From a phage: DNA of 28,420 nucleotides. Each line of letters begins with the position of its first letter. The stretch's first letter is position 1. The stretch lies in assembly GCA_014816205.1 (NCBI GenBank), contig GCA_014816205.1_4096.1. One strand, given 5' to 3'. The position numbers and the translations under genes were made by a program. The notes under the pieces are model-generated. The model saw only the letters and a list, made by a program, of their open reading frames with translations. It was not told the origin of the DNA and searched no databases. Below, piece after piece: positions 5,931 to 20,656 of this stretch.

Positions 5931-5939
5931 TCTTTTTTG

Positions 5940-6788: not shown

Positions 6789-6852
6789 TTTAGTACTCCT
6801 TTTAGTGGGGGAGGATATCTCCCCCTATGCAAAACATTATACTTTGTTTTAG
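6789..6852 (-). promoter_or_regulatory. PeSL-like promoter/hairpin cassette
   Basis: Minus strand TTGCAA...TATAAT then hairpin GGGGGAGATATCCTCCCCC. Confidence 0.5.
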
Positions 6853-7119: not shown

Positions 7120-7205
7120 GGTGTATCTCCCGGACTGGCGGGAGAACTATTCCCCCGCTCTATGTAAAACATTATACGTTAATCTAACTACAATGCAAGT
7201 ACTTT
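7120..7205 (-). promoter_or_regulatory. PeSL-like promoter/hairpin cassette
   Basis: gcgggagaactattcccccgc hairpin plus RC of TATAAT and TTGCAT. Confidence 0.5.
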
Positions 7206-7397
7206 TTAAATTTTATTTCCGATATAGTCCGGTCTATTCTTTTCGGTCATACGCTTTGCTAATGTTTGCATATGGCTTATTGCGTTTAATGTGTCTTCCT
7301 CCAGGGATGAATCAACATAATCAGGATCATTCTTAACCTTGCAATGGTTATGATAGCGTAGTACTGCCAGTACTTTTTTAACTTCTTCAACTGTCAT
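7206..7397 (-). CDS. hypothetical protein (63 aa)
   Basis: ORF track; ATGA overlap with 7394.. gene. Confidence 0.55.
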   Translation of the reverse strand: MTVEEVKKVLAVLRYHNHCKVKNDPDYVDSSLEEDTLNAISHMQTLAKRMTEKNRPDYIGNKI

Positions 7398-7666
7398 AAT
7401 AAGTATTCCACTTCGTTAGCTTTCAGGTTAGTATCAATCATCAGTGGATTTTTGTAGTTCACAAAACGATTAGTTTTCTCGATAGCGAATCCCATATAAT
7501 CCAGCTTACTAACAGTACATTCATTCTTAAAAACTTCTTTCGCTGCATTGATGGCTGATTCAATTGATAACCGACCATCTAAGTTAATGTTTCCAAATGA
7601 TCCACCAGCAGAAGTAGGATTACCGTTCATATCTTTAATGATCATAGTAGCGGAGTAGCTAGACAT
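7394..7666 (-). CDS. hypothetical protein (90 aa)
   Basis: ORF track. Confidence 0.6.
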   Translation of the reverse strand: MSSYSATMIIKDMNGNPTSAGGSFGNINLDGRLSIESAINAAKEVFKNECTVSKLDYMGFAIEKTNRFVNYKNPLMIDTNLKANEVEYLL

Positions 7667-7750
7667 AATTTTGTTTCCTTTTAGTATCGGGGAGAACTAT
7701 TCTCCCCTTGATGTAAACTATTATACAGTACTAAGATACTTTGTCAATAC
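7667..7750 (-). promoter_or_regulatory. PeSL-like promoter/hairpin cassette
   Basis: ggggagaactattctcccc hairpin; minus strand TTGACA, 16 bp, TATAAT; 3' part shared with cassettes at 10524 and 10795. Confidence 0.55.
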
Positions 7751-7972
7751 TTAATTACGTTTAAAATGATATGTGCCTTTATCATCCTGTACGCCCCATA
7801 CTGATTTACCATCAACACCAGTGAAACCGGATTGTAATTCAATATGGAAACCATTATTATCAACTACAAAAACTTTTTTATTTTCATCCCGATAACATTG
7901 ATATTCTGAATCAACATTAAAGGCCGCATCATTCAGAAGATTGGAAGCGTAAATGCAAGTCATTGTAGTCAT
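7751..7972 (-). CDS. hypothetical protein (73 aa)
   Basis: ORF track 7751..8047 trimmed to ATG at 7972 with AAGGA upstream; track N-terminus is the translated hairpin. Confidence 0.55.
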   Translation of the reverse strand: MTTMTCIYASNLLNDAAFNVDSEYQCYRDENKKVFVVDNNGFHIELQSGFTGVDGKSVWGVQDDKGTYHFKRN

Positions 7973-8107
7973 GATTTTATTCCTTATTGCCAGGGAGAAC
8001 CATTTCCCCCTCTCGATATAAAACATTATACTTGATTCTAAGTACAATGCAAGTACTTTTTATCAAATACTTTAAAATAGTTTTCAGTACTGAATACTTA
8101 TATAATA

Positions 8108-8197
8108 GATACACTTATGCACCCTGTGGGTCAGTGAGTTATCTCTCAATGAATATATATTAGCAAAGGGACTGACCGGAGTCAATCCCTTTTTTAA
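8108..8197. repeat. composite intergenic repeat, copy 2
   Basis: tgcaccctgtgggtcagtg 8118-8136; hairpin gggactgaccggagtcaatccc 8168-8189 plus tttttt. Confidence 0.6.
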
Positions 8198-8203
8198 TCT
8201 TTT

Positions 8204-8788
8204 TTATCGTGTTATAGTTACGGCTTTTACATCACGCTTTTTATAGTACTGATTCCAGATATTGCGGGTTAAACCGTAATCAAGTACTTTAATAAGTCCA
8301 TTACGATCCTGGCCGATATTCTGTTTTCTGATATCTCTTATCGTTAGTGTTGATAATGTATCATCGACGTGTTGTAGTGCATCAGCAAAGCGGTGCTGGC
8401 GTTCAATGGCATTACGTTTAATATTGTACTTTAATTCGTTGCACGCGTTAACGTGCTTCACACTGCCTTTACTTGCAGTACTCAACCGATCCATAACGAT
8501 AAACATATTATCAGGATCGCATAAATGCATATGCACCTTTGCAAAGTACTGTTTCAATTGAGGGCGGTCATAGTCTAAAAAATTCCATACCTTACATTCA
8601 GTTTCATTTTGTTCTACACCCGCATCACAATTGGCGACCTTAATCACTAACCGATCATTTAAAGCGAATACAATACGGGAAGAACCCGCACCGATGATCT
8701 CCAGACCAGCTAACCGACAAGCTGAAAGGATCTCTTTGTTGGTTTCCATTTCTGACAGGGTACGGATGAATTTAGTATAATTACGCAT
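8204..8788 (-). CDS. minimal protein-kinase-like protein (194 aa)
   Basis: ORF track 8204..8845 trimmed to ATG at 8788 with AAGGAG upstream; motifs IGAGSSRIVF (Gly loop), VIKVA (Lys), IRDIRKQNIG (catalytic loop), KVLDYGL (DFG-like). Confidence 0.55.
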   Translation of the reverse strand: MRNYTKFIRTLSEMETNKEILSACRLAGLEIIGAGSSRIVFALNDRLVIKVANCDAGVEQNETECKVWNFLDYDRPQLKQYFAKVHMHLCDPDNMFIVMDRLSTASKGSVKHVNACNELKYNIKRNAIERQHRFADALQHVDDTLSTLTIRDIRKQNIGQDRNGLIKVLDYGLTRNIWNQYYKKRDVKAVTITR

Positions 8789-8819
8789 TGCATGTTCTCC
8801 TTGAGTTAATGAAACTATC

Positions 8820-9062
8820 TTACAGTACTTTACTATCAATGGCAACCACTTTTTTCACACTAACCGCGTGAATCACTTCCTTAGTGTTTTTAGTACTGAA
8901 TACTTTCGCTGTTCCATGTTCTACTGCAATGCGATAACGACCGTTAACATCAACCATATTAATAAAGTCCGGTGTACTAAACCGAGTAGTACGGCATTTC
9001 AGTACTGTTAACAGTTCCACCAGCGATGTAGTTTCTTTGATACGTTTTTCTAAAGTAATCAT
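8820..9062 (-). CDS. hypothetical protein (80 aa)
   Basis: ORF track 8820..9119 trimmed to ATG at 9062; track N-terminus MTVLKCF... is the translated promoter region. Confidence 0.55.
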   Translation of the reverse strand: MITLEKRIKETTSLVELLTVLKCRTTRFSTPDFINMVDVNGRYRIAVEHGTAKVFSTKNTKEVIHAVSVKKVVAIDSKVL

Positions 9063-9119
9063 TTTGTTTTCCCCGTGTTGGTATGTACATATAGTACTAA
9101 AACATTTGAGTACTGTCAA

Positions 9120-9338
9120 TTAGATAATTGCATATTTCTTTAAAGATAATGCGTCTTGGGTTGGCTGATACTCAATGCCGTTACCGTTATCTACTTTAAC
9201 TAATAAACCTTTGTCAATTAGTTTTTTAATAGTCCTTTGGCCTTGTTGAAAATTGGTAAAATGTGAATCATTACGAAAGGTATAACCGTGCTTAACTGCT
9301 TCATCAATAGTTTTCTTTTCGATTTTAGATAATTTCAT
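9120..9338 (-). CDS. hypothetical protein (72 aa)
   Basis: ORF track 9120..9395 trimmed to ATG at 9338; same promoter-module artefact as 8820 gene. Confidence 0.55.
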   Translation of the reverse strand: MKLSKIEKKTIDEAVKHGYTFRNDSHFTNFQQGQRTIKKLIDKGLLVKVDNGNGIEYQPTQDALSLKKYAII

Positions 9339-9391
9339 TTTGTTTCTCCCGTGTTGGTATGTGTACATAATACTAAAACAATTGAGTACTG

Positions 9392-9646
9392 TCAACGTGA
9401 TATTAGTTTTATTTTCTTATTATATTGTTGATGTTCATAAAGGTTTATCTTTCCTGTGTTCTCTATTACTATTCTGTTGTTAGTGTCTACATCGATTACA
9501 CGCAGTTTTCCGTTGCTTAACTTCCTTGGTAATAGGTTACCATTAATAAACTCATTAGCAAGCTGTACGGCCTTTGTGATGATTCTCTGTGGTGCTTTAT
9601 AGTGTACCCGCAAGATATTATCTTTAGATAGTTGTACCTTAATCAT
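9392..9646 (-). CDS. hypothetical protein (84 aa)
   Basis: ORF track; AGGAT upstream. Confidence 0.55.
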   Translation of the reverse strand: MIKVQLSKDNILRVHYKAPQRIITKAVQLANEFINGNLLPRKLSNGKLRVIDVDTNNRIVIENTGKINLYEHQQYNKKIKLISR

Positions 9647-9661
9647 TTTAGTTTATCCTAT

Positions 9662-9686
9662 AAAAAAGGCGGGAACTGATCCCGCC
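9662..9686 (-). terminator. rho-independent terminator
   Basis: Hairpin ggcgggaactgatcccgcc 9668-9686 followed on minus strand by TTTTTT; immediately downstream of 9709.. gene. Confidence 0.65.
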
Positions 9687-9708
9687 GTGTTGTTAGTACT
9701 GCAAGTTA

Positions 9709-10104
9709 TTAGATAACCTGGCGGCGTTTACTGTATACTGTTACACGATTACCCTTACGGTCGTGTCGGATCTCTTTCTGGTTGCGTACCAGTTCACTTG
9801 GACGCTTAAGGTTTGCCAGGTGATCCGCGTGAGTCCAAGCGGTATGGTTTGTCTGTACTTTGATATCAGAATCAGCGATAAATTCATCTTGTGCGTTAAG
9901 TACTGCCGCCAGTAAATCCGCTCGTTTTAGTTCTGCTGCTGTTAGTACTGGCTCCGGTGAATTCACAATATCAGAGATTTCTTTGAACTGTACGGCCCAG
10001 CGTTGGCCTTTCGGTGCATCTTTGCCCATGTCTTTAAATGCTGCTCCTTCCTCGCGTGCAACAATACGGGCAGCTTCACGGGTAGCGTAGAATTTAGTAA
10101 TCAT
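9709..10104 (-). CDS. hypothetical protein (131 aa); paralog of 22751..23014
   Basis: ORF track trimmed to ATG at 10104 with AGGA 8 nt upstream; shares KFYATREAARI...FKDMG and RKGNRVTVY with 22751 gene. Confidence 0.6.
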   Translation of the reverse strand: MITKFYATREAARIVAREEGAAFKDMGKDAPKGQRWAVQFKEISDIVNSPEPVLTAAELKRADLLAAVLNAQDEFIADSDIKVQTNHTAWTHADHLANLKRPSELVRNQKEIRHDRKGNRVTVYSKRRQVI

Positions 10105-10199
10105 GGTATACATCCTATTAGTTAAGTTAGTACTACAAGTTAGAGTCTATTATAAAGTACTATCTGGGCAATGTCAAATAGTACTTTAAATGGATTCTA

Positions 10200-10523
10200 T
10201 TACATATCTTTCTTACGTTTTACATCGTAGTATCGAACTGTTATTTCTTTGTTAATCTCTTTTTCGATGCGGTGAATAACTTTTTCTTTCGGGTTGAAAC
10301 CTATAACGGTTTCTTTAATGATCTCCAAGCCCGTGTATTCGCCTTGTGTGCCGTAACCGTATGTAAAGGTTTCATGTCCCAGGTCTTCCCAACGATCACC
10401 AATTAACGCAGACACGTAGCAAGAGTGGTAAGTATTGCCGTGTGAATCAGTCCACCGATTAACTTTAATGTCAAAGGAGGTTACAATTTTCAGTTCTACT
10501 TTCTGGGCAAGGATCATAGCCAT
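10200..10523 (-). CDS. hypothetical protein (107 aa); paralog of 16617..16940
   Basis: ORF track trimmed to ATG at 10523; shares RWTDSxGNTYHSC and FTYGY and KRKKD with 16617 gene. Confidence 0.6.
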   Translation of the reverse strand: MAMILAQKVELKIVTSFDIKVNRWTDSHGNTYHSCYVSALIGDRWEDLGHETFTYGYGTQGEYTGLEIIKETVIGFNPKEKVIHRIEKEINKEITVRYYDVKRKKDM

Positions 10524-10616
10524 TTTTATTTCTCTCTCTTTGTTAGGAGGGGAACCGTTTCCCCTCACTTGATGTAAACTATTATACAGTACTAAGATAC
10601 TTTGTCAATACTTATT
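10519..10616 (-). promoter_or_regulatory. PeSL-like cassette, near-identical direct repeat of 10790-10886
   Basis: About 95 bp matching the cassette at 10790-10886 except in the hairpin arms. Confidence 0.6.
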
Positions 10617-10794
10617 TTTTGGAAAGTTTACGCATTAATTCTACGCTTTCTTGTGAACGTTTTGCTACCTGGCAAGCTGCATGGACAGTAAACATTTTTG
10701 TATAGTCTGACGGTTTGTCACCGAACCGAGCGGCACGTTCACGGGCACTTGGAACTAATACGATTTCTTTCTTACAGATAGTGCATTTAGCCAT
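10612..10794 (-). CDS. small Cys-containing protein (60 aa), possible zinc-binding
   Basis: ORF track; CTIC...HAAC pattern. Confidence 0.5.
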   Translation of the reverse strand: MAKCTICKKEIVLVPSARERAARFGDKPSDYTKMFTVHAACQVAKRSQESVELMRKLSKK

Positions 10795-10886
10795 TTTTAT
10801 TTCTCTCTCTTTGTTAGGAGGGGAACCATTCCCCCTCTCGATGTAAACTATTATACAGTACTAAGATACTTTGTCAATACTTAATT
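10790..10886 (-). promoter_or_regulatory. PeSL-like cassette, direct repeat of 10519-10616
   Basis: Minus strand TTGACA...TATAAT, hairpin GGGGAATGGTTCCCC, leader AACAAAGAGAGAGAAATAAAAATG. Confidence 0.6.
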
Positions 10887-11156
10887 ATTGTAAATGTCGT
10901 GAATAGTGATAAAGTTTTTACGACCGTAAACCTGCAAATCAATATCAATGTAGTGCTTATCTAGTACATCCTCGACGCTTAACGCGGTGTCGTGGATATC
11001 TTCGTAGAATTGAGGATCTACAATCTTGCTTAAGTCATCCGGCGTTAACTCATCGTTAAGCCGTTGAACCGCCTGGATATCTGCTTCACGTTTCCAGTCT
11101 TCCAGGTTAGTAGTCAGTACTTGTTCGATTTCGTTAGCTGTCAGTAGAATCCGCAT
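10881..11156 (-). CDS. hypothetical acidic protein (91 aa)
   Basis: ORF track. Confidence 0.55.
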   Translation of the reverse strand: MRILLTANEIEQVLTTNLEDWKREADIQAVQRLNDELTPDDLSKIVDPQFYEDIHDTALSVEDVLDKHYIDIDLQVYGRKNFITIHDIYNN

Positions 11157-11225
11157 TTTAATGTTTCCTTATCAGTGGTTGATGTAAGTATTATACTCGT
11201 TTACTTTCTATTGTCAAACTATTTT

Positions 11226-11298
11226 ATCAGGGGAGGTTTTCTTATGTCTTACTCCTGGACTACTTAACGGGGTTACTTGTTTCGTTCCCCGTCCTGAT
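11226..11298 (-). promoter_or_regulatory. structured leader element, copy 1
   Basis: Closing stem ATCAGG/CCTGAT enclosing hairpin ACGGGG...CCCCGT; sits between two tandem minus-strand promoters. Confidence 0.4.
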
Positions 11299-11379
11299 GT
11301 AAAACATTATACTTGATTCTAAGTACAATGCAAGTACTTTTTTAAAAATAGTTTTCAGTACTAGCCACCAGCAAACAAT

Positions 11380-11466
11380 AGATACATTTATGCACCCTGT
11401 GGGCTGATTTGTTTCTATGCGTATATAATAGCAAAGGGACTGACCGGAGTCAATCCCTTTTTCAAT
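11380..11466. repeat. composite intergenic repeat, copy 3
   Basis: tgcaccctgtgggctgatt 11391-11409; hairpin 11436-11457 plus ttttt. Confidence 0.6.
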
Positions 11467-11471
11467 TATTT

Positions 11472-11621
11472 TTAAACTTGTTTCGGGTTGCGATAGGTGA
11501 TAGCGTTCGGGTACATTTGTTTAATGTTATTCCATGCCTGGTTAACATTGTAACCACTTGAGCGAATCAGTTGGTTGCTACCGACACCTTGAAACACTAC
11601 TTCGAATAAGAATTCTTTCAT
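11472..11621 (-). CDS. small protein (49 aa), absent from ORF track
   Basis: Hand translation codon by codon: MKEFLFEVVFQGVGSNQLIRSSGYNVNQAWNNIKQMYPNAITYRNPKQV; start overlaps upstream TGA. Confidence 0.45.
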   Translation of the reverse strand: MKEFLFEVVFQGVGSNQLIRSSGYNVNQAWNNIKQMYPNAITYRNPKQV

Positions 11622-11791
11622 GCTTTCACCTCGCTATCTGCTTTACCTTTACGCCAGGACATTACTAATTGTTCGCGTTGCCATAAGTCGAGTGATACAA
11701 AAAGTTTTGCGGTATCACTTTTAGGATACTCGCCATTAGTACCTAACCGATAAAACAGATCTTTCAGTACTGATAATTCTACTTGAATCAT
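11618..11791 (-). CDS. small protein (57 aa), absent from ORF track
   Basis: Hand translation: MIQVELSVLKDLFYRLGTNGEYPKSDTAKLFVSLDLWQREQLVMSWRKGKADSEVKA; ATGA overlap with upstream gene. Confidence 0.45.
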   Translation of the reverse strand: MIQVELSVLKDLFYRLGTNGEYPKSDTAKLFVSLDLWQREQLVMSWRKGKADSEVKA

Positions 11792-11880
11792 TTTATTACT
11801 CCTGATTGCGTTAATACTTCTACTATTGCATGAATGATCATAAGTACAGCTAAAACAATAATCATCGGATTCATTTGCAT
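11788..11880 (-). CDS. small hydrophobic peptide (30 aa), absent from ORF track
   Basis: Hand translation: MQMNPMIIVLAVLMIIHAIVEVLTQSGVIK; AAGGAG 8 nt upstream; first of three coupled small genes. Confidence 0.4.
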   Translation of the reverse strand: MQMNPMIIVLAVLMIIHAIVEVLTQSGVIK

Positions 11881-11897
11881 AAGCTGTACTCCTTATA

Positions 11898-12110
11898 TTA
11901 ATCTTTCAGCCAATGATCCTGAATGAATTTTTCGCCGGAACCTTGCTGCATTGTTTGTAACAGACGTTCACGATGAGCGGCGGCGAATTGCTCAGTACTA
12001 TGCGTTACGCCAGGCTGATAACGTGATACCCCATCCGGTCCGATGTATTGTACATCCCACGGTTTAGCGTTAGTATCAGACCATTTACGAACGATTAGTT
12101 GACCTTGCAT
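11898..12110 (-). CDS. hypothetical protein (70 aa)
   Basis: ORF track; GAGAGGAAAG upstream. Confidence 0.6.
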   Translation of the reverse strand: MQGQLIVRKWSDTNAKPWDVQYIGPDGVSRYQPGVTHSTEQFAAAHRERLLQTMQQGSGEKFIQDHWLKD

Positions 12111-12195
12111 TTTTCTTTCCTCTCAGTGGGGAGAATCATTTCTCCCCTTCATGTAACTTATTATACAGTACTATAATCTATTGTCAAATACTTTT
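12111..12195 (-). promoter_or_regulatory. PeSL-like promoter/hairpin cassette
   Basis: ggggagaatcatttctcccc hairpin; minus strand TTGACA...TATAAT. Confidence 0.5.
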
Positions 12196-12384
12196 TTAAA
12201 GTTTATGAATCAATTCTTTATCTAAGCGATAGCGTACATTATTAATGGTAACAGCATTATTTTTAATGCTACGCTGTACAGGTCCACCAGCAATAACAAA
12301 TGTTGCTTTATTACCCCGAACAATGATAGCACTTCCAGGATTACCGAAATCATCTTGTACTAAAATACTTGATAAGTTTTCCAT
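12196..12384 (-). CDS. hypothetical protein (62 aa)
   Basis: ORF track 12196..12390 trimmed to second ATG (12384), which has GAGGA at proper spacing. Confidence 0.55.
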   Translation of the reverse strand: MENLSSILVQDDFGNPGSAIIVRGNKATFVIAGGPVQRSIKNNAVTINNVRYRLDKELIHKL

Positions 12385-12462
12385 TTTCATTTCCTCTTAG
12401 TAGGGGAAGATGTTTCCCCTTGATGTAAGTACTATAACACTACTGAAAACTAAATGCAAGTA

Positions 12463-12819
12463 CTATGATAAAATCATGATAGGATATTCACTATCGATCA
12501 GTACCTCGAATCCGAAACCTTCGTACCATTCTTTAAGATTGAAGGCGTTATCTTCTCCTGTATCGCATTCTAAAATGATACAATCTGAATCATCGGCGGC
12601 ATCAATAAAGGCATTCATTAATTCGTTACCTTCACCATTGCCCCGACTATCAGGATCAACATAAAGAGAATCAATAAACGCTACACGGTCATAATCAAGA
12701 TCCGGTGCAATGATTCCACGTTTAACAAACCAGTACTGCAATTGTGCTACTTTGCCCTGTACTTGATAACCAGTGATCTCGCCATTGTCAGTAGTACGCG
12801 TGATATGTTGTATTCCCAT
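12463..12819 (-). CDS. GNAT-family acetyltransferase-like protein (118 aa)
   Basis: ORF track; RGNGEG resembles the acetyl-CoA-binding motif and WYEGFGFE the C-terminal GNAT motif; GAGGA upstream. Confidence 0.5.
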   Translation of the reverse strand: MGIQHITRTTDNGEITGYQVQGKVAQLQYWFVKRGIIAPDLDYDRVAFIDSLYVDPDSRGNGEGNELMNAFIDAADDSDCIILECDTGEDNAFNLKEWYEGFGFEVLIDSEYPIMILS

Positions 12820-12882
12820 GATTTCTATCCTCAGTTAAGATATAAAACATTATACACTATCTTTCAGTACTGTCAATACTTT

Positions 12883-13140
12883 TTATCTCATAGATCTATG
12901 CCAACAATTACGCGGGGGACGTTTAAAAGTACTATCATGATCCTCCTGGCAAGTTATGCAGTACTTACATCCCTTAACGGCCTGGCGTCGTTTCTCAGGG
13001 ATTATATCGCCGCAGTCGAGGCAATGTATCAGTGATTCTATTTGTGCGTTAATTTGCTTTCTAGCGTGGTTAACGGCGGCCTGAATCACTGCGTTGATCT
13101 CGTCTTGTTCGGCCCCGTCTTTCGCGTATCCTACTGCCAT
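12883..13140 (-). CDS. TraR/DksA-family C4 zinc-finger protein (85 aa)
   Basis: ORF track; CLDCGDIIPEKRR...CKYCITCQ matches the CxxC-x17-CxxC TraR/DksA zinc-finger pattern. Confidence 0.55.
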   Translation of the reverse strand: MAVGYAKDGAEQDEINAVIQAAVNHARKQINAQIESLIHCLDCGDIIPEKRRQAVKGCKYCITCQEDHDSTFKRPPRNCWHRSMR

Positions 13141-13471
13141 TATTTTAACCTCATTATAAAAATACTATAGTACTGTAATGCGACAATAATATTACTTGTT
13201 CTTACTTTTTCCAATCCACATGATACCACATATTCATCCCCATATGTGCGAAACGATACACCATGAAAATTTTTATACACTTGCACTACTAATCATAACC
13301 TTTCGTCTAACCAACTGCATAGAATTATACTACTTTACGCAAATTGATCAAGTATTGATCAGATCATTTTTTGATCAATATTATACAGTTACATTTGTGC
13401 ACCCTATGGGTTAGTGACGTTCTCGTCTTGATGTAAGTATTATGCCAGTACTGGATGATATTGTCAATAGA

Positions 13472-13669
13472 TTATTTTAATTTTTTTCTGTCATTGATTA
13501 ATGCTTTCAGTACTATACTAATGATTTGCAATGATTCATCAATGACTATAAAATTATTCTCTTTCATTAGATGATAGTTACCATTGATTGTATATTCTAA
13601 GGAGTACTGTTTACGTTTAATTTTTGATAATGTTTCTATTTGTTTTTGTACTGATTTCATGCTAATCAT
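13472..13669 (-). CDS. hypothetical protein (65 aa)
   Basis: ORF track; AGGA 9 nt upstream. Confidence 0.55.
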   Translation of the reverse strand: MISMKSVQKQIETLSKIKRKQYSLEYTINGNYHLMKENNFIVIDESLQIISIVLKALINDRKKLK

Positions 13670-13774
13670 TGTTAAACGTCCTGTAACGCATTCTAACGAG
13701 ATAAACGGTTTAGTACTGGCATTGTATAGGGTAATGAATTAAAGTCCACCAGCGTTAACCAGTGGGCTATAATC

Positions 13775-13918
13775 TTACATCTTGCGGATAATCTTAACAG
13801 TATCTTTCACCGATTTACCGTCCTGTTGACATTGTTCGATCATCGCGTATTGTTCTGCGGTCAGATCCTCGCCAGTTTTTGCCAGTACTGCGTCGATGAA
13901 TGAATCCAGTGCGATCAT
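13775..13918 (-). CDS. small protein (47 aa), absent from ORF track
   Basis: Hand translation: MIALDSFIDAVLAKTGEDLTAEQYAMIEQCQQDGKSVKDTVKIIRKM; AGAGAGAAATAAA leader; promoter cassette 13919-14017. Confidence 0.45.
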   Translation of the reverse strand: MIALDSFIDAVLAKTGEDLTAEQYAMIEQCQQDGKSVKDTVKIIRKM

Positions 13919-14017
13919 TTTATTTCTCTCTTAGGTTAAGTTAACTACTGTTTATAAAACTTATTATACAGTACTATCAAACGTTGTCAATATCTTTAAT
14001 AGTACTGGTAATATATT

Positions 14018-14197
14018 TTAGCGGTAATCGTCGTATGCTTTATTCACCTGGCGAATGTAACTTTCAAAGGCTTCGTCTACCGTTTCATACTCCCGAACAT
14101 AATCACCATAGGAAACTACATACATACCTTTTTGATCTTCAAACGACATGATGATAGAATCCAGGCCGATGATTTCAGTTTTTGCGATGATAGCCAT
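14018..14197 (-). CDS. hypothetical protein (59 aa)
   Basis: ORF track 14018..14260 trimmed to ATG at 14197 with AAGGA upstream. Confidence 0.55.
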   Translation of the reverse strand: MAIIAKTEIIGLDSIIMSFEDQKGMYVVSYGDYVREYETVDEAFESYIRQVNKAYDDYR

Positions 14198-14289
14198 TTT
14201 TAATTCCTTAGTAGTGTAGTTGATAAAAGTTATTATGCCAGTACTATCAATCAGTGTCAATAGCTTTGATAGTACTGTGATAATATTTT

Positions 14290-14502
14290 TTAGTTAATAA
14301 TAGTCAGTGTAAAATTGTAATCACCACAGCGATATAGCACGTTATTCCCAAATGTTCCAACTAATCGCACATCACACAAAACTCCGGTTTTTTCTTTTAC
14401 CTCCTTGATACTTGTAACTCCTGTAATATCTTTATTAAAGTATTCATGATCTGAAAATAAAACTTGTTTTGCATTTTTTAATTTCGACCGGATATTAGCC
14501 AT
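14290..14502 (-). CDS. hypothetical protein (70 aa)
   Basis: ORF track; start context AAAATGGCT. Confidence 0.6.
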   Translation of the reverse strand: MANIRSKLKNAKQVLFSDHEYFNKDITGVTSIKEVKEKTGVLCDVRLVGTFGNNVLYRCGDYNFTLTIIN

Positions 14503-14595
14503 TTTGTTTTCTCTCTGTTAGTGGGGAGAACTATTCTCCCCTTCATGTAAAACATTATACAGTACTATAATCTATTGTCAAACTATTTTTTAATA
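14503..14595 (-). promoter_or_regulatory. PeSL-like promoter/hairpin cassette (consensus example)
   Basis: Minus strand TTGACA, 16 bp, TATAAT, GTTTTACATGAAG, hairpin GGGGAGAATAGTTCTCCCC, then AGAGAGAAAACAAAATG. Confidence 0.6.
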
Positions 14596-14937
14596 TTATT
14601 CGAAATCTTCTGGACCGGACTGATAATCATCTTCACCGTATGCACTTTCTAACCGCTCGCCAGTTTGATCATCAGTTAGTGAGTCATCCTCATAGTTCAC
14701 GTCTACGCCTACAATGTAAAACTGGCTATCGTCTGGATCATTGAAATTAATTTTCTGAATGTTTACAATAACTGTATTGATGCCCAGGACACAGCCATCA
14801 GCCGTTACAAAGTACTGATATTTTTCACAACCGCCTGAATTGAAACCGTAATTGATTTCGGCCCGACCATCATTTAAACGCAGTGCCTGAGCGATGATTT
14901 CGTTTTCAAAGTTAGATTGAGCAATTGAGATAGTCAT
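14596..14937 (-). CDS. hypothetical protein with acidic C-terminus (113 aa)
   Basis: ORF track; AAGGA upstream. Confidence 0.6.
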   Translation of the reverse strand: MTISIAQSNFENEIIAQALRLNDGRAEINYGFNSGGCEKYQYFVTADGCVLGINTVIVNIQKINFNDPDDSQFYIVGVDVNYEDDSLTDDQTGERLESAYGEDDYQSGPEDFE

Positions 14938-15071
14938 GATTCGTTTCCTTATTACCAGGGGAAACCGTTTCCCCTTTCGATGTAAAACATTATACGCCTA
15001 TTGAGATAGTTTGCAAGTACTTTTTATCAAATACTTTAAAATAGTTTTCAGTACTCAAACATTATACAATA

Positions 15072-15160
15072 GATACACTCCTGCACCCTGTGGGCTAGTG
15101 AGCTATCTCTCAATGAATATATAATAGCAAAATGGCTGACCGAAGTCAACCACTTTTTTC
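15072..15160. repeat. composite intergenic repeat, copy 4 (variant hairpin)
   Basis: tgcaccctgtgggctagtg 15082-15100; hairpin tggctgaccgaagtcaacca 15133-15152 plus tttttt; arm changes preserve pairing relative to other copies. Confidence 0.55.
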
Positions 15161-15162
15161 AT

Positions 15163-15297
15163 TTATTTTTTAGCTTTAAGTACTGCGGCCTTTCGTGTCA
15201 TTCCTTGTTTGATGTACTCCTTTACTTTCGCTTTTTTAGCGTTTACCTTGTCTGCTTTCGTTTTAGGAGTACTGTAAATTATACCGTTAGGATTCAT
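15163..15297 (-). CDS. small Lys-rich protein (44 aa), absent from ORF track
   Basis: Hand translation: MNPNGIIYSTPKTKADKVNAKKAKVKEYIKQGMTRKAAVLKAKK; start overlaps upstream stop. Confidence 0.45.
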   Translation of the reverse strand: MNPNGIIYSTPKTKADKVNAKKAKVKEYIKQGMTRKAAVLKAKK

Positions 15298-15387
15298 TTA
15301 AATCACCATAAAGAATAGATAGGTTACTAACAATGCCGCGATCAATGCACCGACCAGGGCCGAACTGTAATAAGCCAATGATTTCAT
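15298..15387 (-). CDS. small hydrophobic peptide (29 aa), absent from ORF track
   Basis: Hand translation: MKSLAYYSSALVGALIAALLVTYLFFMVI; ATGA overlap with 15384.. gene. Confidence 0.4.
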   Translation of the reverse strand: MKSLAYYSSALVGALIAALLVTYLFFMVI

Positions 15388-15536
15388 TTTTTAGCCTGAA
15401 AGTAATGTTTAATTTGTGCGGCGGTCAGTGCACAATTACGCAGGAAGTTTTCTGTATAACTGCGTCGAGTACTGAAAGAAAATTGACCTTTGCCGTTACC
15501 GATAGTAACATCAAACCGAGCATTATATTGTTTCAT
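15384..15536 (-). CDS. hypothetical protein (50 aa)
   Basis: ORF track 15384..15566 trimmed to ATG at 15536; track N-terminus is the translated leader hairpin. Confidence 0.5.
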   Translation of the reverse strand: MKQYNARFDVTIGNGKGQFSFSTRRSYTENFLRNCALTAAQIKHYFQAKK

Positions 15537-15617
15537 TTTGTTTCTCCTGATAGTGGGGAGAATCATTTCTCCCCTTGATGTAAAACATTATACAGTACTG
15601 AAAACTAATTGCAAGTA
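15537..15617 (-). promoter_or_regulatory. PeSL-like promoter/hairpin cassette
   Basis: RC of ttgcaa 15609-15614 and attata 15587-15592 (16-bp spacer); hairpin ggggagaatcatttctcccc 15555-15574. Confidence 0.6.
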
Positions 15618-15764
15618 TTATTTTTTAGATTTACGCAAACTTTCTACCATCTCAGGAGTAAGGCCCGGCGGGTAGGAAACCACTTCATCAACGAAACGTA
15701 AAGGGAATACCCCAGCGAAAGGTGAACATGCTTTCTTAGTATTACTCTTTTTTGATGCTTTCAT
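15618..15764 (-). CDS. small basic protein (48 aa), absent from ORF track
   Basis: Hand translation: MKASKKSNTKKACSPFAGVFPLRFVDEVVSYPPGLTPEMVESLRKSKK; AAGGA upstream. Confidence 0.45.
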   Translation of the reverse strand: MKASKKSNTKKACSPFAGVFPLRFVDEVVSYPPGLTPEMVESLRKSKK

Positions 15765-15833
15765 TTCATATTCCTTAATTAGTGGGGAGTACTATTTCTC
15801 CCCTTCATGTAAAACATTATACAGTACTGAAAA
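15765..15833 (-). promoter_or_regulatory. PeSL-like promoter/hairpin cassette
   Basis: ggggagtactatttctcccc hairpin; same promoter module as 15537-15617. Confidence 0.55.
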
Positions 15834-16043
15834 CTAATTGCAAGTACTATTTGAAAGTAAATGCTCATACGCTGCATTAACTACATTTTCAATAACCGAC
15901 TGTACAGAAAGATCCCCCACGTCCTGGCTATAGTAGAAATTGCTTACAGTGGTGTCATCGTATGCAAATACTTTACCAGGTACGGCATCAATCACATACA
16001 TATTAACCTTTAAGATGTCGATCTTATCCTGTACAGTAAGCAT
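15834..16043 (-). CDS. hypothetical protein (69 aa)
   Basis: ORF track 15834..16157 trimmed to ATG at 16043; the track N-terminus overlaps a better gene in another frame. Confidence 0.5.
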   Translation of the reverse strand: MLTVQDKIDILKVNMYVIDAVPGKVFAYDDTTVSNFYYSQDVGDLSVQSVIENVVNAAYEHLLSNSTCN

Positions 16044-16044
16044 A

Positions 16045-16215
16045 TTACGCCGCCTTATCAGTACTGGCAACCGGACGGATACGGGCCATTTCCTGGGCTT
16101 GTTCCACACTGTAACGCTCATAAAGGCGGCATTCTTCCGGTGTAGGAACAGCATCAATACGCTTCATCGGTTTAATGATTCTTTCGATCTCATTCAGTAC
16201 TTGATTAACGTTCAT
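16045..16215 (-). CDS. small protein (56 aa), absent from ORF track
   Basis: Hand translation: MNVNQVLNEIERIIKPMKRIDAVPTPEECRLYERYSVEQAQEMARIRPVASTDKAA; GGGGA 7 nt upstream. Confidence 0.45.
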   Translation of the reverse strand: MNVNQVLNEIERIIKPMKRIDAVPTPEECRLYERYSVEQAQEMARIRPVASTDKAA

Positions 16216-16266
16216 GGTATAATCCCCAATATAAGCGGCCTAAATCGACCACTAACGATGATTTGA

Positions 16267-16536
16267 TCAATAGGTGTATGGTTGACGCTCAAACAATGAT
16301 TGCACGTTGTACGCCCCGCTTATGGGCTTCGCTGGCAAATCAATTTTATATTGTTCACGCTTAAAGATAATAAAACGGCAATTGTTTTTAACATCAAAAT
16401 TGATTGAACGTTCCAGGAGTTTACCATCGTGCACAAATACAAGATAACCGCTTGGTACTTGTTTTGTAGAACTGGTTGCAACCATAGACCGACGAACATG
16501 TGTACCTGCATCGATTAAAGTACTGATATTTTTCAT
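16267..16536 (-). CDS. hypothetical protein (89 aa)
   Basis: ORF track; AAGAGGAAAG upstream. Confidence 0.6.
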   Translation of the reverse strand: MKNISTLIDAGTHVRRSMVATSSTKQVPSGYLVFVHDGKLLERSINFDVKNNCRFIIFKREQYKIDLPAKPISGAYNVQSLFERQPYTY

Positions 16537-16616
16537 TTTACTTTCCTCTTAAGTTGATTTAATTTCTTTCCCCTATGCAGACACTATATCAAAGTATCTG
16601 CATAAAGTAAAGCTAA

Positions 16617-16940
16617 TTAAAGATCTTTTTTGCGTTTAACATTCTGTACAGTACAATGCAACGGGATATTAAGATCATTGCACAAACGATAGAGGGAGGT
16701 TTCAACAGTATCAAGCCCGTCTACTGATTCCTTTAAGAGTGATACCGCCGTTTGTTGATATGCATCCTCATAGCCATAAGTAAATGATTCAACCGCCAGA
16801 TCATTCAAGCCGTTATCCAGTTCAACGCTTACATGACAAGAATGATAAGTATTGCCATATGAATCAGTCCAACGTTTACCGTCAACATTGATTGCATGGA
16901 TTGCAGCCAGGGAAACGGTGTTGATGATAGTTTTAGCCAT
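16617..16940 (-). CDS. hypothetical protein (107 aa); paralog of 10200..10523
   Basis: ORF track; shared RWTDSYGNTYHSC and FTYGY and KRKKD motifs. Confidence 0.6.
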   Translation of the reverse strand: MAKTIINTVSLAAIHAINVDGKRWTDSYGNTYHSCHVSVELDNGLNDLAVESFTYGYEDAYQQTAVSLLKESVDGLDTVETSLYRLCNDLNIPLHCTVQNVKRKKDL

Positions 16941-16968
16941 TTTAGTATTCCTTAAATTAATATGTGTC

Positions 16969-17042
16969 GTCTTGATAAAATCTATTATGCCAGTACTATC
17001 AAACTATGTCAATAGTACTGTGATAATATTTTTACTTACTTT
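16969..17042 (-). repeat. about 74-bp direct repeat, copy A (promoter module)
   Basis: Identical to 17263-17336; contains RC of TTGACA and CATAAT. Confidence 0.65.
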
Positions 17043-17244
17043 CTTTTGATGCTTTATATGTTGCCACTGCCATAACCACATCAGCACGAACAAAGTTTTT
17101 AACCGTGTCAGTGTAGTAATTGATTGCATCGTCTACATCTGTGAACGTCCGATACATACCGCACCAAGATACTTTATAACCTTCTTTCACTTGTTCAAGT
17201 TTAACCAGTGTTTTGTTTACTTTAATTTTAGTAATGATAGCCAT
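17032..17244 (-). CDS. hypothetical protein (70 aa)
   Basis: ORF track. Confidence 0.6.
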   Translation of the reverse strand: MAIITKIKVNKTLVKLEQVKEGYKVSWCGMYRTFTDVDDAINYYTDTVKNFVRADVVMAVATYKASKESK

Positions 17245-17262
17245 TATTGTTTCCTCTTAGTT

Positions 17263-17336
17263 GTCTTGATAAAATCTATTATGCCAGTACTATCAAACTA
17301 TGTCAATAGTACTGTGATAATATTTTTACTTACTTT
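17263..17336 (-). repeat. about 74-bp direct repeat, copy B
   Basis: Identical to 16969-17042; the two copies flank the 17032..17244 gene. Confidence 0.65.
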
Positions 17337-17469
17337 TTTCTTTCTTAATTGCTTCCACCTGGTCGGCCCATTCTTTACCCCATACTTGTAAATTATAATG
17401 GTACTGGCAAAGAGCAACGCCCCGCTTTAAACCAGTAATAGATTTTGTACCACATTGACAAGTTTTCAT
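17326..17469 (-). CDS. small Cys-rich protein (47 aa), possible zinc ribbon; absent from ORF track
   Basis: Hand translation: MKTCQCGTKSITGLKRGVALCQYHYNLQVWGKEWADQVEAIKKEKSK; preceded by cassette 17470-17554. Confidence 0.45.
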   Translation of the reverse strand: MKTCQCGTKSITGLKRGVALCQYHYNLQVWGKEWADQVEAIKKEKSK

Positions 17470-17554
17470 ATTAGTTTCCTTGTAGTGGGGAGAATCATTT
17501 CTCCCCTTGATGTAATGTATTATACTTTATTCGATTTACTTTGCAAGTACTTTT
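17470..17554 (-). promoter_or_regulatory. PeSL-like promoter/hairpin cassette
   Basis: ggggagaatcatttctcccc hairpin; RC of TATAAT and TTGCAA. Confidence 0.55.
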
Positions 17555-17782
17555 TTAATTTAATTCATCCAGGCAAAGGATACGTTCCACACCAAGATCC
17601 GTTAAACTAATGGTCGGTACTTGATAGGTTTCAATGTATGCTACACTTGCCCACTGACCGAACTCATTAACGGCCCAGGTATTCATTGCATTTTGCAATT
17701 CCACACCTTCCTTGTTGGTAATGACTGCAACTACTTGTTCGTTGCCAGTAGTACCAGATACGCGAGTAATGATAATAGCCAT
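17555..17782 (-). CDS. hypothetical protein (75 aa)
   Basis: ORF track. Confidence 0.6.
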   Translation of the reverse strand: MAIIITRVSGTTGNEQVVAVITNKEGVELQNAMNTWAVNEFGQWASVAYIETYQVPTISLTDLGVERILCLDELN

Positions 17783-18231
17783 TTTTTAATTCCTATTCAG
17801 TAGTTGATGTATGTATTATGTCAGTACTTAAAACTATTGTCAAACTATTTTTTAAAATTTATCAATGATTGATGCCGTTTCATTGATAGTCTTGCCGTGT
17901 TTTGCACACGCGATAACTGCTTTAAATTCCTTTGATGACCAATCTTTCTTGCTGCATACTGACATTACTTGTAACGTGAAACAATCCAGTTCATAAGTAT
18001 TCATCTTTAAATCCTCAGTTAGTTAAGGTGTCTCGCCTTGATGTAATTAATTATACGCTAATCTCTTAATCGTGCAAGTACTTTTTATTACTTTTTGTAA
18101 AATACTTTAAACACTCTCAATCGCTTTCTAACGTCCTTAACGCCACCAGCTAGGGCAATGTATCAGATAATCAGTTTAATGCGTTAGAATCGATTCTAGG
18201 CGGTGCTAGTGGACTGGAATACTATAGACAC

Positions 18232-18258
18232 AAAAAAGCCCACTGTTTAAGGTGGGCT
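18232..18258 (-). terminator. rho-independent terminator
   Basis: Hairpin agcccactgtttaaggtgggct followed on minus strand by TTTTTT; directly downstream of 18280.. gene. Confidence 0.65.
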
Positions 18259-18279
18259 AGTGATTCAGTACTTTAATTG

Positions 18280-18762
18280 TTATGCTTCAACTTTGCGATG
18301 AGCTTCGATCCATTCCTCGCGAGTCAATCCGCTTTCTTTGATAGCATCCAGTACTACCGCAATGCAGTTACCGCGTACAGGAATCATATGTTCTTCCCCG
18401 TTATCAAGTACTACAGTAACACGTTCTTGAATCCATTTTTTAGGTTTAGATTCTGGCTTATCTTCACCATACTTAACCGCCAGGGCTTTATGTGCCATTT
18501 CTACAACTACTTCCAGATCCAATCCAGACACCGCCGCCTGGATACTTTCGATTGTTGCTTGCAGTTCGGCTTCACGGGCTTTTTTCTGTTCTTCCAGTTC
18601 TGCTACCTTTTTGGCTTGCAGTTCTTTAGCTTCACTGTACGCAATGTTAAAATTGTTGCGTACTGCTTTCATGGTATCGTTATCCAGGTCAGCCAGCAAT
18701 TCAGCAGCAATAACAGTATCGTTTGAAATCAGTGCTTTCAGGAATGATTTTACATTAGCCAT
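18280..18762 (-). CDS. hypothetical protein (160 aa) with Glu/Lys/Ala-rich central segment
   Basis: ORF track 18280..18777 trimmed to ATG at 18762 with GAGGA 9 nt upstream. Confidence 0.6.
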   Translation of the reverse strand: MANVKSFLKALISNDTVIAAELLADLDNDTMKAVRNNFNIAYSEAKELQAKKVAELEEQKKAREAELQATIESIQAAVSGLDLEVVVEMAHKALAVKYGEDKPESKPKKWIQERVTVVLDNGEEHMIPVRGNCIAVVLDAIKESGLTREEWIEAHRKVEA

Positions 18763-18816
18763 TTTATAAATCCTCAATTAAAGTTTAGTTTACGTTTATT
18801 AGTGTATCAAAGTTTT

Positions 18817-18878
18817 ATCGACGTGTCCAGTTTTTCGTTCGACTTACTGGCGGTCTACTTAGTGCTCCCCGTCTTGAT
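18817..18878 (-). promoter_or_regulatory. structured leader element, copy 3 (long 5' UTR)
   Basis: Minus strand begins ACATCAAGACGGGGA and contains TAAGTAGACC, as in copies at 11226 and 22074; promoter TTGACA/TAGAAAT at 18886-18914. Confidence 0.4.
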
Positions 18879-18965
18879 GTAATACATTCTACGCCTTTTT
18901 GTGGTAATGTCAACTACTATTTTAAAACTATTTTTAAAGTATGCAGTACTACGATAATACAAAAA

Positions 18966-18992
18966 CAAAAAAGCCCACTGTATAAGTGGGCT
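18966..18992 (-). terminator. rho-independent terminator (duplicate of the 18232 module)
   Basis: Hairpin agcccactgtataagtgggct followed on minus strand by T-run; downstream of 19010.. gene. Confidence 0.65.
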
Positions 18993-19009
18993 AGTGATTC
19001 AGTACTATA

Positions 19010-19309
19010 TTATAAACAGTTAATTACTCCGGTGTGCGTTACTTTCTCAGTATCCATAACAGTGACCGAACCGCGTTTAGTACTTGCATCGTAATAAATT
19101 GTCGTGCTACCTTTTTCGTCTTCTTCATGGAACGGCCCGTTTTTAAATGCTTCTGGCTGGATCTCTAAATCCTTTAAAACAATCTCGCCAGTACTTTCAT
19201 TGGTCATCGCTACAGTGCACTGAATGAATTTTTCACTACTTACATCTAACGACGCATTAACAGCGAAAGAGGAAACAGATAAAGCCAGGGCGATGATTGC
19301 AATTTTCAT
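19010..19309 (-). CDS. secreted or periplasmic small protein with N-terminal signal peptide (99 aa)
   Basis: ORF track; MKIAIIALALSVSSFAVNA has a hydrophobic core and an AxA-type cleavage site. Confidence 0.6.
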   Translation of the reverse strand: MKIAIIALALSVSSFAVNASLDVSSEKFIQCTVAMTNESTGEIVLKDLEIQPEAFKNGPFHEEDEKGSTTIYYDASTKRGSVTVMDTEKVTHTGVINCL

Positions 19310-19393
19310 TTGATTATCCTTAGTTACCAGGGGGAACCGCTCCCCCTTGCGATGTAAAATATTATACAGTACTAAAAACTATTATCAAGTACT
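19310..19393 (-). promoter_or_regulatory. PeSL-like promoter/hairpin cassette
   Basis: gggggaaccgctccccc hairpin; RC of TATAAT. Confidence 0.5.
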
Positions 19394-19630
19394 TTATGAT
19401 TTTTTATAAAACATTTCGGCAGTGATATTTTTACCCGTTGGTTGTACTTTATCCAGAATTTTTTGATGCCCTGGCCGTCCAAATGAATATGATCCGTAAA
19501 CCGTAAACCAGTAGTTACCCTCAGTGTTTACATGTACAGCACAATAGGGAACGCCCCGCGATTCATCACTAGTAAAGTGTGATACCGTTCCCGTTACATT
19601 CGCAGACGTTGATTTGATTTGTTCGAGCAT
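19394..19630 (-). CDS. hypothetical protein (78 aa)
   Basis: ORF track. Confidence 0.6.
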   Translation of the reverse strand: MLEQIKSTSANVTGTVSHFTSDESRGVPYCAVHVNTEGNYWFTVYGSYSFGRPGHQKILDKVQPTGKNITAEMFYKKS

Positions 19631-19738
19631 TTTCTTATTCCTTAGTTACCAGGGGAACCGCTCCCCCTATGCAAAACATTATACGCGTTTAAAAACTAAT
19701 TGCAAGTATTTTAATAAAAAGTATTTGAAAAATAATTG

Positions 19739-19767
19739 TTGACAACTGCATCCAGTACTGGCATAAT
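19739..19767 (+). promoter_or_regulatory. plus-strand sigma70-like promoter
   Basis: ttgaca 19739-19744, 17-bp spacer, cataat 19762-19767; no plus-strand ORF follows. Confidence 0.45.
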
Positions 19768-19773
19768 TACTAC

Positions 19774-19880
19774 ATAAAGACGATACAGTCACTAACCCAC
19801 AGGGTGCATAGATCCGTCTATTAAATGATTCAGTACTGAAAAAGTAACGGGGAGTTATTATCTCCCCGCGTTGTTATTTG
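19774..19880 (+). ncRNA. candidate small non-coding RNA (about 100 nt)
   Basis: Runs from the 19739 promoter to hairpin cggggagttattatctccccg (19848-19868) plus U-rich tail; contains the 19-nt motif; only a 4-codon ORF. Confidence 0.3.
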
Positions 19881-20095
19881 GTAAGGTATAAACAGAAGTC
19901 ACCTTTATTTGCTACGCCGCCAGTGTAACGCGATGAATAGTTAGAAATATCTTGTACTTCTGCTATTACCAGTGTATCATCATTCATTTCGTCGCAGAAG
20001 CAAACGGCTGGATCTTTTACGCCGATATTGTCGGCATGTTCCCGCATAGATTTAACCAGTGCTTCCAGTTGAGAAAGAGTAGTGATATTAGCCAT
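19874..20095 (-). CDS. hypothetical protein (73 aa)
   Basis: ORF track 19874..20125 trimmed to ATG at 20095. Confidence 0.55.
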   Translation of the reverse strand: MANITTLSQLEALVKSMREHADNIGVKDPAVCFCDEMNDDTLVIAEVQDISNYSSRYTGGVANKGDFCLYLTK

Positions 20096-20179
20096 TGTAT
20101 TTTCCTCATTACCAGGGAGAACCATTTCTCCCCTCTATGTAAACTATTATACAGTACTAAAAACTAATTGCAAGTACTT
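20096..20179 (-). promoter_or_regulatory. PeSL-like promoter/hairpin cassette
   Basis: gggagaaccatttctccc hairpin; RC of TATAAT and TTGCAA. Confidence 0.5.
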
Positions 20180-20365
20180 TTAATTAAATTTTGTACCGTC
20201 CAGTAATGAAGCATTACGCATCATTCGCCCAGCACGATCCCAGCTAGTAGGATCGGGAATCCCTTGCAACTCGTTAGGGGAGATCTCAATCTTGATCCCT
20301 ACATTGATAACAGTCATTCCAGCCTTTGCAGCTTGCTCTCGGATAACCTCAGATAATGTTGTCAT
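20180..20365 (-). CDS. hypothetical protein (61 aa)
   Basis: ORF track 20180..20407 trimmed to ATG at 20365 with AGGAG 8 nt upstream; track M1 is a TTG. Confidence 0.55.
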   Translation of the reverse strand: MTTLSEVIREQAAKAGMTVINVGIKIEISPNELQGIPDPTSWDRAGRMMRNASLLDGTKFN

Positions 20366-20426
20366 GATTAAAGCTCCTGTATCGCTTATAATGTTTGTCA
20401 GTACCAATATAAAGTATTATACGCCT

Positions 20427-20639: not shown

Positions 20640-20656
20640 TAGATAATCCTCAGTAC

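Follow-up and report, generated by a model that had tools for sequence, protein, structure and literature searches.

Why do nearly identical sequences lie on both sides of single small genes in a phage genome, and what becomes of the genes between them? The question is posed by a 28,420-nt stretch of phage DNA (contig GCA_014816205.1_4096.1, referred to below as the window), in which four pairs of direct repeats flank genes between positions 10519 and 20958. The original prediction held that homologous recombination between such repeats would delete or circularise the intervening gene, the mechanism proposed for the mini-circles of PeSLs, the combined promoter and stem-loop elements of T4-type phages. 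We find about 43 modules of one family dispersed on the minus strand, among which the flagged pairs are the most alike; the family had gone unnoticed in that prediction. Our reading, which we consider probable, is that homogenisation or duplication was most recent in the flagged repeats, and that these regulatory modules act both as early promoters and as homology patches for the exchange of single genes.

Judged by its sequence, the window comes from a 350-kb jumbo phage of E. coli in the genus Asteriusvirus (121Q/PBECO4-like). Its closest records in megablast are Escherichia jumbo myophages of this genus (121Q, PBECO4, slurp01, G17, phAPEC6 and others), at 90–98% identity. Positions 10000–18000 matched 63 phage records and positions 4000–26000 matched 172, none of which reached 80% coverage of this 22-kb query, the matches being split into up to 13 pieces; the relatives are highly mosaic in this zone. 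Since the linear record of G17 has its first base at window position 4443 and its right end aligns to 25493, the segment 4443–25493 is equivalent to the direct terminal repeat (DTR), about 21 kb long. Published DTR lengths in Asteriusvirus are 20,993 and 21,525 bp (PMC13070987), and the related phage CBB has a 22,456-bp repeat with RpoD-like promoters (PMC5259590). The DTR-equivalent zone contains all of the ~43 predicted promoter modules and about 52 small early genes (~50–200 aa), which lie on the minus strand. No function is assigned to eight of the ten largest DTR proteins; a GNAT acetyltransferase and a DksA-like zinc finger protein are among the ten.

Exact alignment bore out the repeats that had been flagged. 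The two copies of pair 1 (10519–10616 and 10790–10886), described as ~95 bp of near-identical sequence around a 60-aa gene, match in 93 of 99 columns (93.9%) with one 2-nt and one 1-nt indel, and the third, partial copy proposed at 7700–7748 agrees with 10830–10878 at 45 of 49 positions, the promoter core being identical. Pair 2 (16969–17042 and 17263–17336), put forward as ~74 bp of identity around the gene at 17032–17244, is the same at 74 of 74 positions (100%; 98% when extended to 80 nt), and the repeat takes in the final codons of both upstream genes. Both pairs thus lie above 90% identity, the level far below which the proposal was to have been given up. The members of pair 3 (18232–18258 and 18966–18992), seen as duplicated terminator modules flanking the gene that starts at 18280, match at 25 of 28 positions (43 of 49 when extended) and each show, on the minus strand, a GC stem with a T-run after it, terminator-like by prediction. 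In pair 4 (20640–20656 and 20942–20958), read as a repeated ribosome binding site (RBS) module, 16 of 17 positions agree, within a 19-nt exact core covering the RBS and the ATG. The open reading frames between the copies are real minus-strand genes that are annotated in relatives too. The repeats are not known RNA genes, since ARAGORN detected no tRNA and Rfam (E<=1) gave nothing beyond a sub-threshold Trp-leader match, located at the pair-3 terminator.

What are these repeats, then? A repeat search of the window returned families of up to 22 copies, and a promoter consensus scan gave 32 strong matches on the minus strand against nine on the plus strand. Twelve perfect (12/12) matches to TTGACA-N16/17-TATAAT are found on the minus strand within 20 kb, together with about 30 more near-consensus sites (TTGCAA-16-TATAAT), and promoter-like sites as a whole number 117 compared to 69.6 in shuffles. 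A profile built from the module copies has 34 minus-strand hits at E<0.01, spanning 5319–25141, and none in 1–4400 or 25700–28420; with the hairpin-less class added this makes ~43 modules, roughly one per gene. Each module occupies the space from the stop codon of the upstream gene to the Shine-Dalgarno sequence (SD) and ATG of the downstream gene, with ~100 nt conserved, and is laid out on the minus strand as stop codon, A-rich stretch (an A-run upstream of the predicted promoter in the module alignments), near-consensus sigma-70 promoter (predicted), in about 25 copies a GC hairpin, RBS and ATG. AGTACT often stands before both the -35 and the -10 hexamers, and a few modules hold an intrinsic terminator instead. 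We do not take the TACTG...CAGTA motifs for LexA boxes, as their spacing is 12 nt and not 10. Pairwise identity of the modules over 105 nt (903 comparisons) has a median of 0.64, and the flagged pairs are its top values, so the similarity of these repeats is far beyond chance. Among the 15 most similar module pairs, six are adjacent (hypergeometric p=2.6e-5), an enrichment confined to the top of the identity distribution.

Read against this layout, the upstream copy of pair 1 (10790–10886; this and all features below are on the minus strand) consists of TTGACA-16-TATAAT, a GC hairpin, RBS and ATG, and is the predicted promoter of the 60-aa gene (10612–10794; three cysteines, PHROG 8738), while the downstream copy (10519–10616) is the predicted promoter module of the gene at 10200–10523. 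The third copy of the promoter core belongs to the module at 7665–7757, before the gene at 7394–7666. The upstream copy of pair 2 (17260–17339) comprises the end codons of the gene at 17326–17469 and a predicted promoter, TTGACA-17-CATAAT, which has no GC hairpin and carries a 9-nt inverted repeat (CAGTACTAT/ATAGTACTG) spanning the -35 box. It is followed by the 70-aa gene (17032–17244, PHROG 35559) and by the downstream copy (16966–17045), with the end codons of the 70-aa gene and the predicted promoter for the gene at 16617–16940. In pair 3 the upstream terminator module (18959–19006) has AGCCCAC..GTGGGCT and then a T-run, and the downstream one (18225–18272) lies after the gene at 18280–18762 (160 aa). 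The RBS/ATG repeats of pair 4 are at 20638–20656 (TACTGAGGATTATCTAATG), before the gene at 20427–20639, and at 20940–20958, before the gene at 20657–20941 (94 aa).

Whether the flanked genes really come and go was followed by comparing seven relatives (ELP-22, slurp01, G17, 121Q, WPEC5, BF17 and SHEFM2K) with the window over the DTR, using chained BLAST alignments. Gene content at these loci, which the original prediction had suggested comparing, varies at pairs 1 and 2. The 60-aa gene is missing from 121Q and SHEFM2K, in which the flanking alignments overlap by 101–103 nt on one module. The 70-aa gene is missing from slurp01, G17, ELP-22 and WPEC5, all of which keep a single copy of the 77-nt repeat: the alignment ends at 17042–17067 and restarts at 17238–17260, and because the two pieces overlap by 77–129 nt in the relative, the gene is missing there and one repeat copy is left. 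The same gene is present in 121Q and BF17 and replaced in SHEFM2K, and the protein has tblastn matches in 22 records. In a multiple alignment of the empty sites the lone module joins the upstream copy's flank on the left and the downstream copy's flank on the right. The original proposal of gene loss at the repeats is therefore supported for pairs 1 and 2, where gene-minus relatives retain one module, but not for pairs 3 and 4, where no excision of the flanked gene was seen in the seven relatives. Breakpoints occur at these pairs as well: at the pair-3 terminator (18978/19017) four relatives hold an extra 231-nt gene, which in ELP-22 is not bracketed by duplicated terminators, and the junction of a SHEFM2K deletion falls at 20652 in the pair-4 RBS repeat. 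In G17 the module at 7665–7757 is duplicated around an extra 408-nt gene (query overlap 7654–7752, 396-nt insertion).

Such changes are not restricted to the flagged pairs. In total, 32 distinct indel or replacement events separate the window from the seven relatives, and 43 of their 64 breakpoints fall inside modules, which make up 21.7% of the zone (binomial p=8e-15). In 14 events the aligned pieces overlap by 45–129 nt on one module; the overlap lies in the relative, except where the relative carries an additional gene, in which case it lies in the window. About 13 of the 52 DTR genes vary among the relatives, nearly all of them with a module on either side. The GNAT acetyltransferase cassette (12463–12819; Pfam Acetyltransf_1, E=4e-9), between modules 12422–12476 and 12839–12890, is missing from slurp01, G17 and BF17, and the hybrid module at this site combines the -35 part of the upstream module with the -10 part and hairpin of the downstream one. 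The module-bracketed gene for an 88-aa protein (6853–7119) is missing from 121Q with a 48-nt overlap and a junction in the promoter spacer. Also missing from 121Q, with a 72-nt overlap, is a 48-aa cassette gene (15618–15764; modules 15577–15628 and 15806–15860), at the module of which ELP-22 and WPEC5 carry an additional gene. At these three places (12445/12866, 6872/7160 and 15627/15784) a hybrid module is left, with the crossover at the -35 box or within the spacer. A 61-aa cassette gene (20180–20365; modules 20135–20186 and 20407–20460) is missing from six of the seven relatives with junctions at modules, the junction 20190/20449 being at the module start, directly upstream of the -35 box.

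Further records add to the picture of the pair-2 locus. Two ENA metagenome scaffolds of Asteriusvirus size (348–349 kb) encode exactly the 70-aa protein of 17032–17244, and in both the next gene downstream encodes a 114-aa variant and not the 107-aa protein of the window, a further mosaic at the same module. The assembly ECO103 4-12-1 has, besides its main contig OR844650.1 (581x coverage), a separate contig of 1,658 bp, OR844675.1, at 525x. The two are 92% identical across the pair-2 region, then differ in a ~310-nt segment at the position of window 16642–17234, and the small contig terminates in a 77-nt exact overlap with the main one. This suggests two alleles of the locus in one stock, or non-identical repeat copies. 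We rejected the small contig as a mini-circle, as it has no terminal self-overlap and looks like a second allele at similar coverage.

The cassettes also extend beyond Asteriusvirus. The 70-aa protein is found at 84% amino acid identity in W70, A7_1 and A5-4, and the 60-aa protein at 95% in inny, BME3 and ECGD1; all six are rV5-like phages of 137–147 kb, W70 belonging to Vequintavirinae and inny to Stephanstirmvirinae. In inny an 89% nucleotide match spans the 60-aa gene together with both flanking modules, and in W70 the nucleotide match takes in both pair-2 repeats. W70 holds homologues of 12 of the window's 51 DTR proteins inside 5.6 kb, in a different order and with some modules of the same type. 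A 90-nt module query matched 753 places in 72 phage records, comprising Rak2-like jumbo phages of Escherichia, Klebsiella, Salmonella, Erwinia, Serratia and Yersinia and a few rV5-like coliphages. A bolder model can be offered tentatively, as a possibility that we do not favour: the Asteriusvirus DTR might be a dedicated platform for exchange of early genes, with the modules as portable homology arms common to at least three coliphage lineages that are otherwise unrelated (Asteriusvirus, Vequintavirinae and Stephanstirmvirinae), ten co-oriented Chi sites recruiting host RecBCD/RecA at the genome ends, and co-infecting phages trading ready-to-express single-gene cassettes at a high rate.

How would the modules work? 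With them in place, host RNA polymerase would transcribe nearly every small early gene as a separate unit, and the hairpin, most likely at the 5' end of the mRNA, could stabilise or insulate the transcript. Similar sequence of 40–100 nt returns every ~500 bp, and for this reason the modules could also serve as homology patches. Misaligned or inter-phage homologous recombination at these patches would delete, insert or replace single-gene cassettes, and each exchange would rebuild a working promoter. An intramolecular exchange between flanking copies would release a circle made of the gene and one module. The recombinase could be the phage's own T4-type system (UvsX/gp46/47) or host RecA; the Rak2-like clade encodes UvsX, UvsW, gp46/47 and endonuclease VII (PMC5259590). 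The comparison of relatives reveals the products of exchange, the direction of events and circular intermediates being outside its reach.

Several observations weigh against exchange by homology. The intergenic space of the zone is almost wholly module sequence, and for this reason junctions in modules are also expected under selection against gene disruption. Several junctions (12445/12866 and 20190/20449) have few shared bases, which suggests microhomology more than long homology. On average, adjacent modules are no more alike than under random ordering (permutation p=0.13), and in none of the seven relatives is the gene inside pair 3 or pair 4 individually missing. The main rival explanation builds on the first three of these points: the repeats would be purely regulatory, kept alike because a strong early promoter, a 5' hairpin and an RBS are selected for, and illegitimate or microhomology events would happen anywhere, with only the intergenic survivors that keep a promoter being seen. 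It would mimic the enrichment of breakpoints in modules, and it accommodates both the few-base junctions and the unremarkable average of adjacent modules. It does not readily explain the 45–129 nt common to both flanks on one module copy in 14 events, the complete identity of pair 2 over 74 nt compared to a family median of 64%, the share of adjacent modules among the most similar pairs, or the movement of cassettes together with modules into other phage lineages. We consider this rival unlikely and keep homologous exchange at promoter modules as the preferred reading.

What is the role of the hairpin? Folding of the first 48 nt beyond the -10 box gave -9 kcal/mol or lower for 27 of 43 modules, and about 24 of these have tight GC hairpins of 7–9 bp that start 12–13 nt past the -10 box, with free energies of -11 to -18 kcal/mol. 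A strong GC hairpin is missing from ~40% of the modules, and the pair-2 class has an A/T-rich 9-nt inverted repeat over the -35 box in its place. In a set of 89 unique hairpins drawn from the window and from relatives, the Watson-Crick pair varies in type (G-C, C-G, A-T and T-A) at each of stem positions 4, 6, 7 and 8. This covariation is read from pair counts anchored on the loop rather than from the MAFFT alignment, on which RNAalifold retained only three pairs, also covarying, because unequal loop lengths had shifted the arms out of register. The hairpins sit downstream of their own predicted promoters, and the usual distance from -10 box to start would place them at about +5 of the transcript. 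As no module hairpin is followed by a T-run, a role as terminator is doubtful, and none of them appears in the list of terminator-like structures; we infer from the sequence a 5' stabiliser or insulator instead.

Conserved hairpins with compensatory changes at cassette boundaries could also be expected if the cassettes moved site-specifically, whether by an integron-like system recombining at the GC hairpin or through a homing endonuclease. The DTR does resemble an integron in its arrays of single genes associated with promoters, bordered by imperfect hairpin-forming repeats and subject to gain, loss and reordering. It differs in that the positions of crossover vary (upstream of -35, in the spacer, at the RBS, at the terminator), each cassette has its own predicted promoter and exchange is apparently driven by homology. 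Pair 2 and its relatives have no hairpin to be recognised, and the ten largest DTR proteins, the only ones scanned, contain no integrase, recombinase or HNH domain. Because of the varied junctions, the hairpin-less pair 2 and the lack of a recombinase among these ten proteins, site-specific movement is very improbable.

The frequent adjacency of the most similar modules might alternatively suggest that the pairs are left from local tandem duplication of a gene with its promoter, one gene copy then diverging. An all-against-all BLASTP of the 51 DTR proteins found no flanked gene that is paralogous to its neighbour, and we rejected tandem duplication on this basis; the flanked genes also have other neighbours in W70 and inny, and the idea has hardly any credibility left. 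Only two paralogue pairs exist among the 51 proteins. One of them (10200–10523 and 16617–16940, 37% over 107 aa) is formed by the genes directly downstream of the pair-1 and pair-2 cassettes.

The closest known counterparts of the modules are the PeSLs, defined in T4-type phages as a strong sigma-70-like promoter with a stem-loop, extending from a stop codon to the next SD/ATG and concentrated before ORFans (genes with no known relatives) in hyperplastic regions; indels occur at PeSLs between RB49 and phi1, and mini-circles have been detected (PMC2839356; PMC4122927). The modules agree with this description both in their architecture and in the comparison of relatives. Like PeSLs (Arbiol et al., 2010, PMC2839356; Comeau et al., 2014, PMC4122927), they are ~100-nt composites of stop codon, A-T-rich stretch, sigma-70 promoter, G-C stem-loop, SD and ATG, they lie upstream of ORFans in hyperplastic regions, and the breakpoints of single-gene indels or replacements fall within the motif, of which one chimeric copy remains. 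In contrast to PeSLs, which belong to T4-like myoviruses, the modules are carried by Asteriusvirus, a member of the Rak2-like clade that shares only 21 of 38 T4 core proteins (PMC5259590), and are confined to the ~21-kb DTR. The hairpin of the modules follows the predicted transcription start and lacks a T-run, ~40% of them are without a GC hairpin, and their cassettes are common to rV5-like phages. In the literature searched, the term PeSL is applied to T4-like phages only, and papers on Asteriusvirus are silent on promoters in the repeat.

The DTR zone also resembles the terminal repeats of SPO1 and T5, which are long and carry small early or host-takeover genes transcribed by host RNA polymerase from many strong promoters. 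Packed small early genes and numerous strong promoters are features of both. To our knowledge the SPO1 and T5 blocks are described mainly as expression units, and exchange of cassettes by modules is not part of that description.

The terminal repeat has other unusual features. The Chi octamer (GCTGGTGG) has 11 copies in the window against 0.31 expected (at most two in 100 shuffles), all within the DTR, and none of the other permutations of its eight bases exceeds two copies. Ten copies are on the minus strand (5803, 6025, 7602, 9017, 11365, 12284, 13746, 18143, 24057 and 24897), in the orientation recognised by RecBCD entering the left genome end, and seven to nine of the minus-strand copies are kept in all seven relatives. 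The single plus-strand copy (24909) forms a Chi/anti-Chi hairpin with the one at 24897, ~580 nt from the right DTR boundary. Oriented terminal Chi clusters are known in P1 and in LLS-type lambdoid phages (PMC12315714), which likewise have Chi on one strand, oriented for entry of RecBCD at the nearer genome end. Here, in contrast, the carrier is a virulent jumbo phage from a clade with its own T4-type recombination system.

The palindrome AGTACT has 156 copies in the window, where 9.4 would be expected; all are in 4574–28371 and none in 1–4573. In most modules it directly precedes the -35 and -10 boxes, and 80 of the 136 DTR copies stand apart from the modules, some in coding sequence. Its density is equal in the relatives, and none is found in 7 kb of the rV5-like inny; it is possibly the binding site of a regulator or a modification site.

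The region 23900–25750, ~1.9 kb without a convincing gene and ~92% conserved in relatives, lies downstream of the first DTR promoter (25128–25101, predicted) and contains the Chi hairpin, an array with an 8-nt period (TAGCCGTC-like, 24595–24685, 11 copies, 61% match) and short repeats at 25406–25632; its possible roles are those of an origin, of a signal for packaging or ejection, or of a non-coding RNA. Some transcription units end in a repeated element (5836–5938, 8098–8205, 11371–11473 and 15062–15178; partial at 13378, 22317 and 24221) in which a 12-bp hairpin (AAAGGGATTGACTCCGGTCAGTCCCTTT), carrying a terminator annotation in G17, precedes first GCTATTATA and then the conserved motif AGCCCACAGGGTGCA; Rfam gave no match for the element. 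An element of ~190 nt is present at 11172–11362 and 22020–22212 (~85% identical) and once in W70 (2486–2630, 88%); it has two tandem predicted promoters and a conserved transcript-like segment of ~80 nt (CAGGACGGGGAAC...CCCCGTTAAGTAGTCCAGGAG), and may be a small RNA.

The flanks of the zone (1–4400 and 25750–28420) are built of arrays of overlapping paralogous genes for proteins of ~60–90 aa, apparently translationally coupled and without promoter modules. Counterparts of the left array in SHEFM2K are annotated as PHROG 4148. Copy number in these arrays varies among relatives, with junctions within paralogues (e.g. 1528/1649 and 26161/26111).

Homologous exchange at promoter modules, if our reading is right, extends modular shuffling of the PeSL type from T4-like to Rak2-like jumbo phages and locates it in the terminal repeat. 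It would explain why Asteriusvirus genomes, though 90–98% identical, never match across the whole repeat, and how small genes without an assigned function, some of them probably serving host takeover, pass between unrelated coliphages. The modules would account for assembly ambiguities in the terminal-repeat region, and in practice they mark places where insertion or removal of genes is probably feasible in these phages, which are candidates for therapy.

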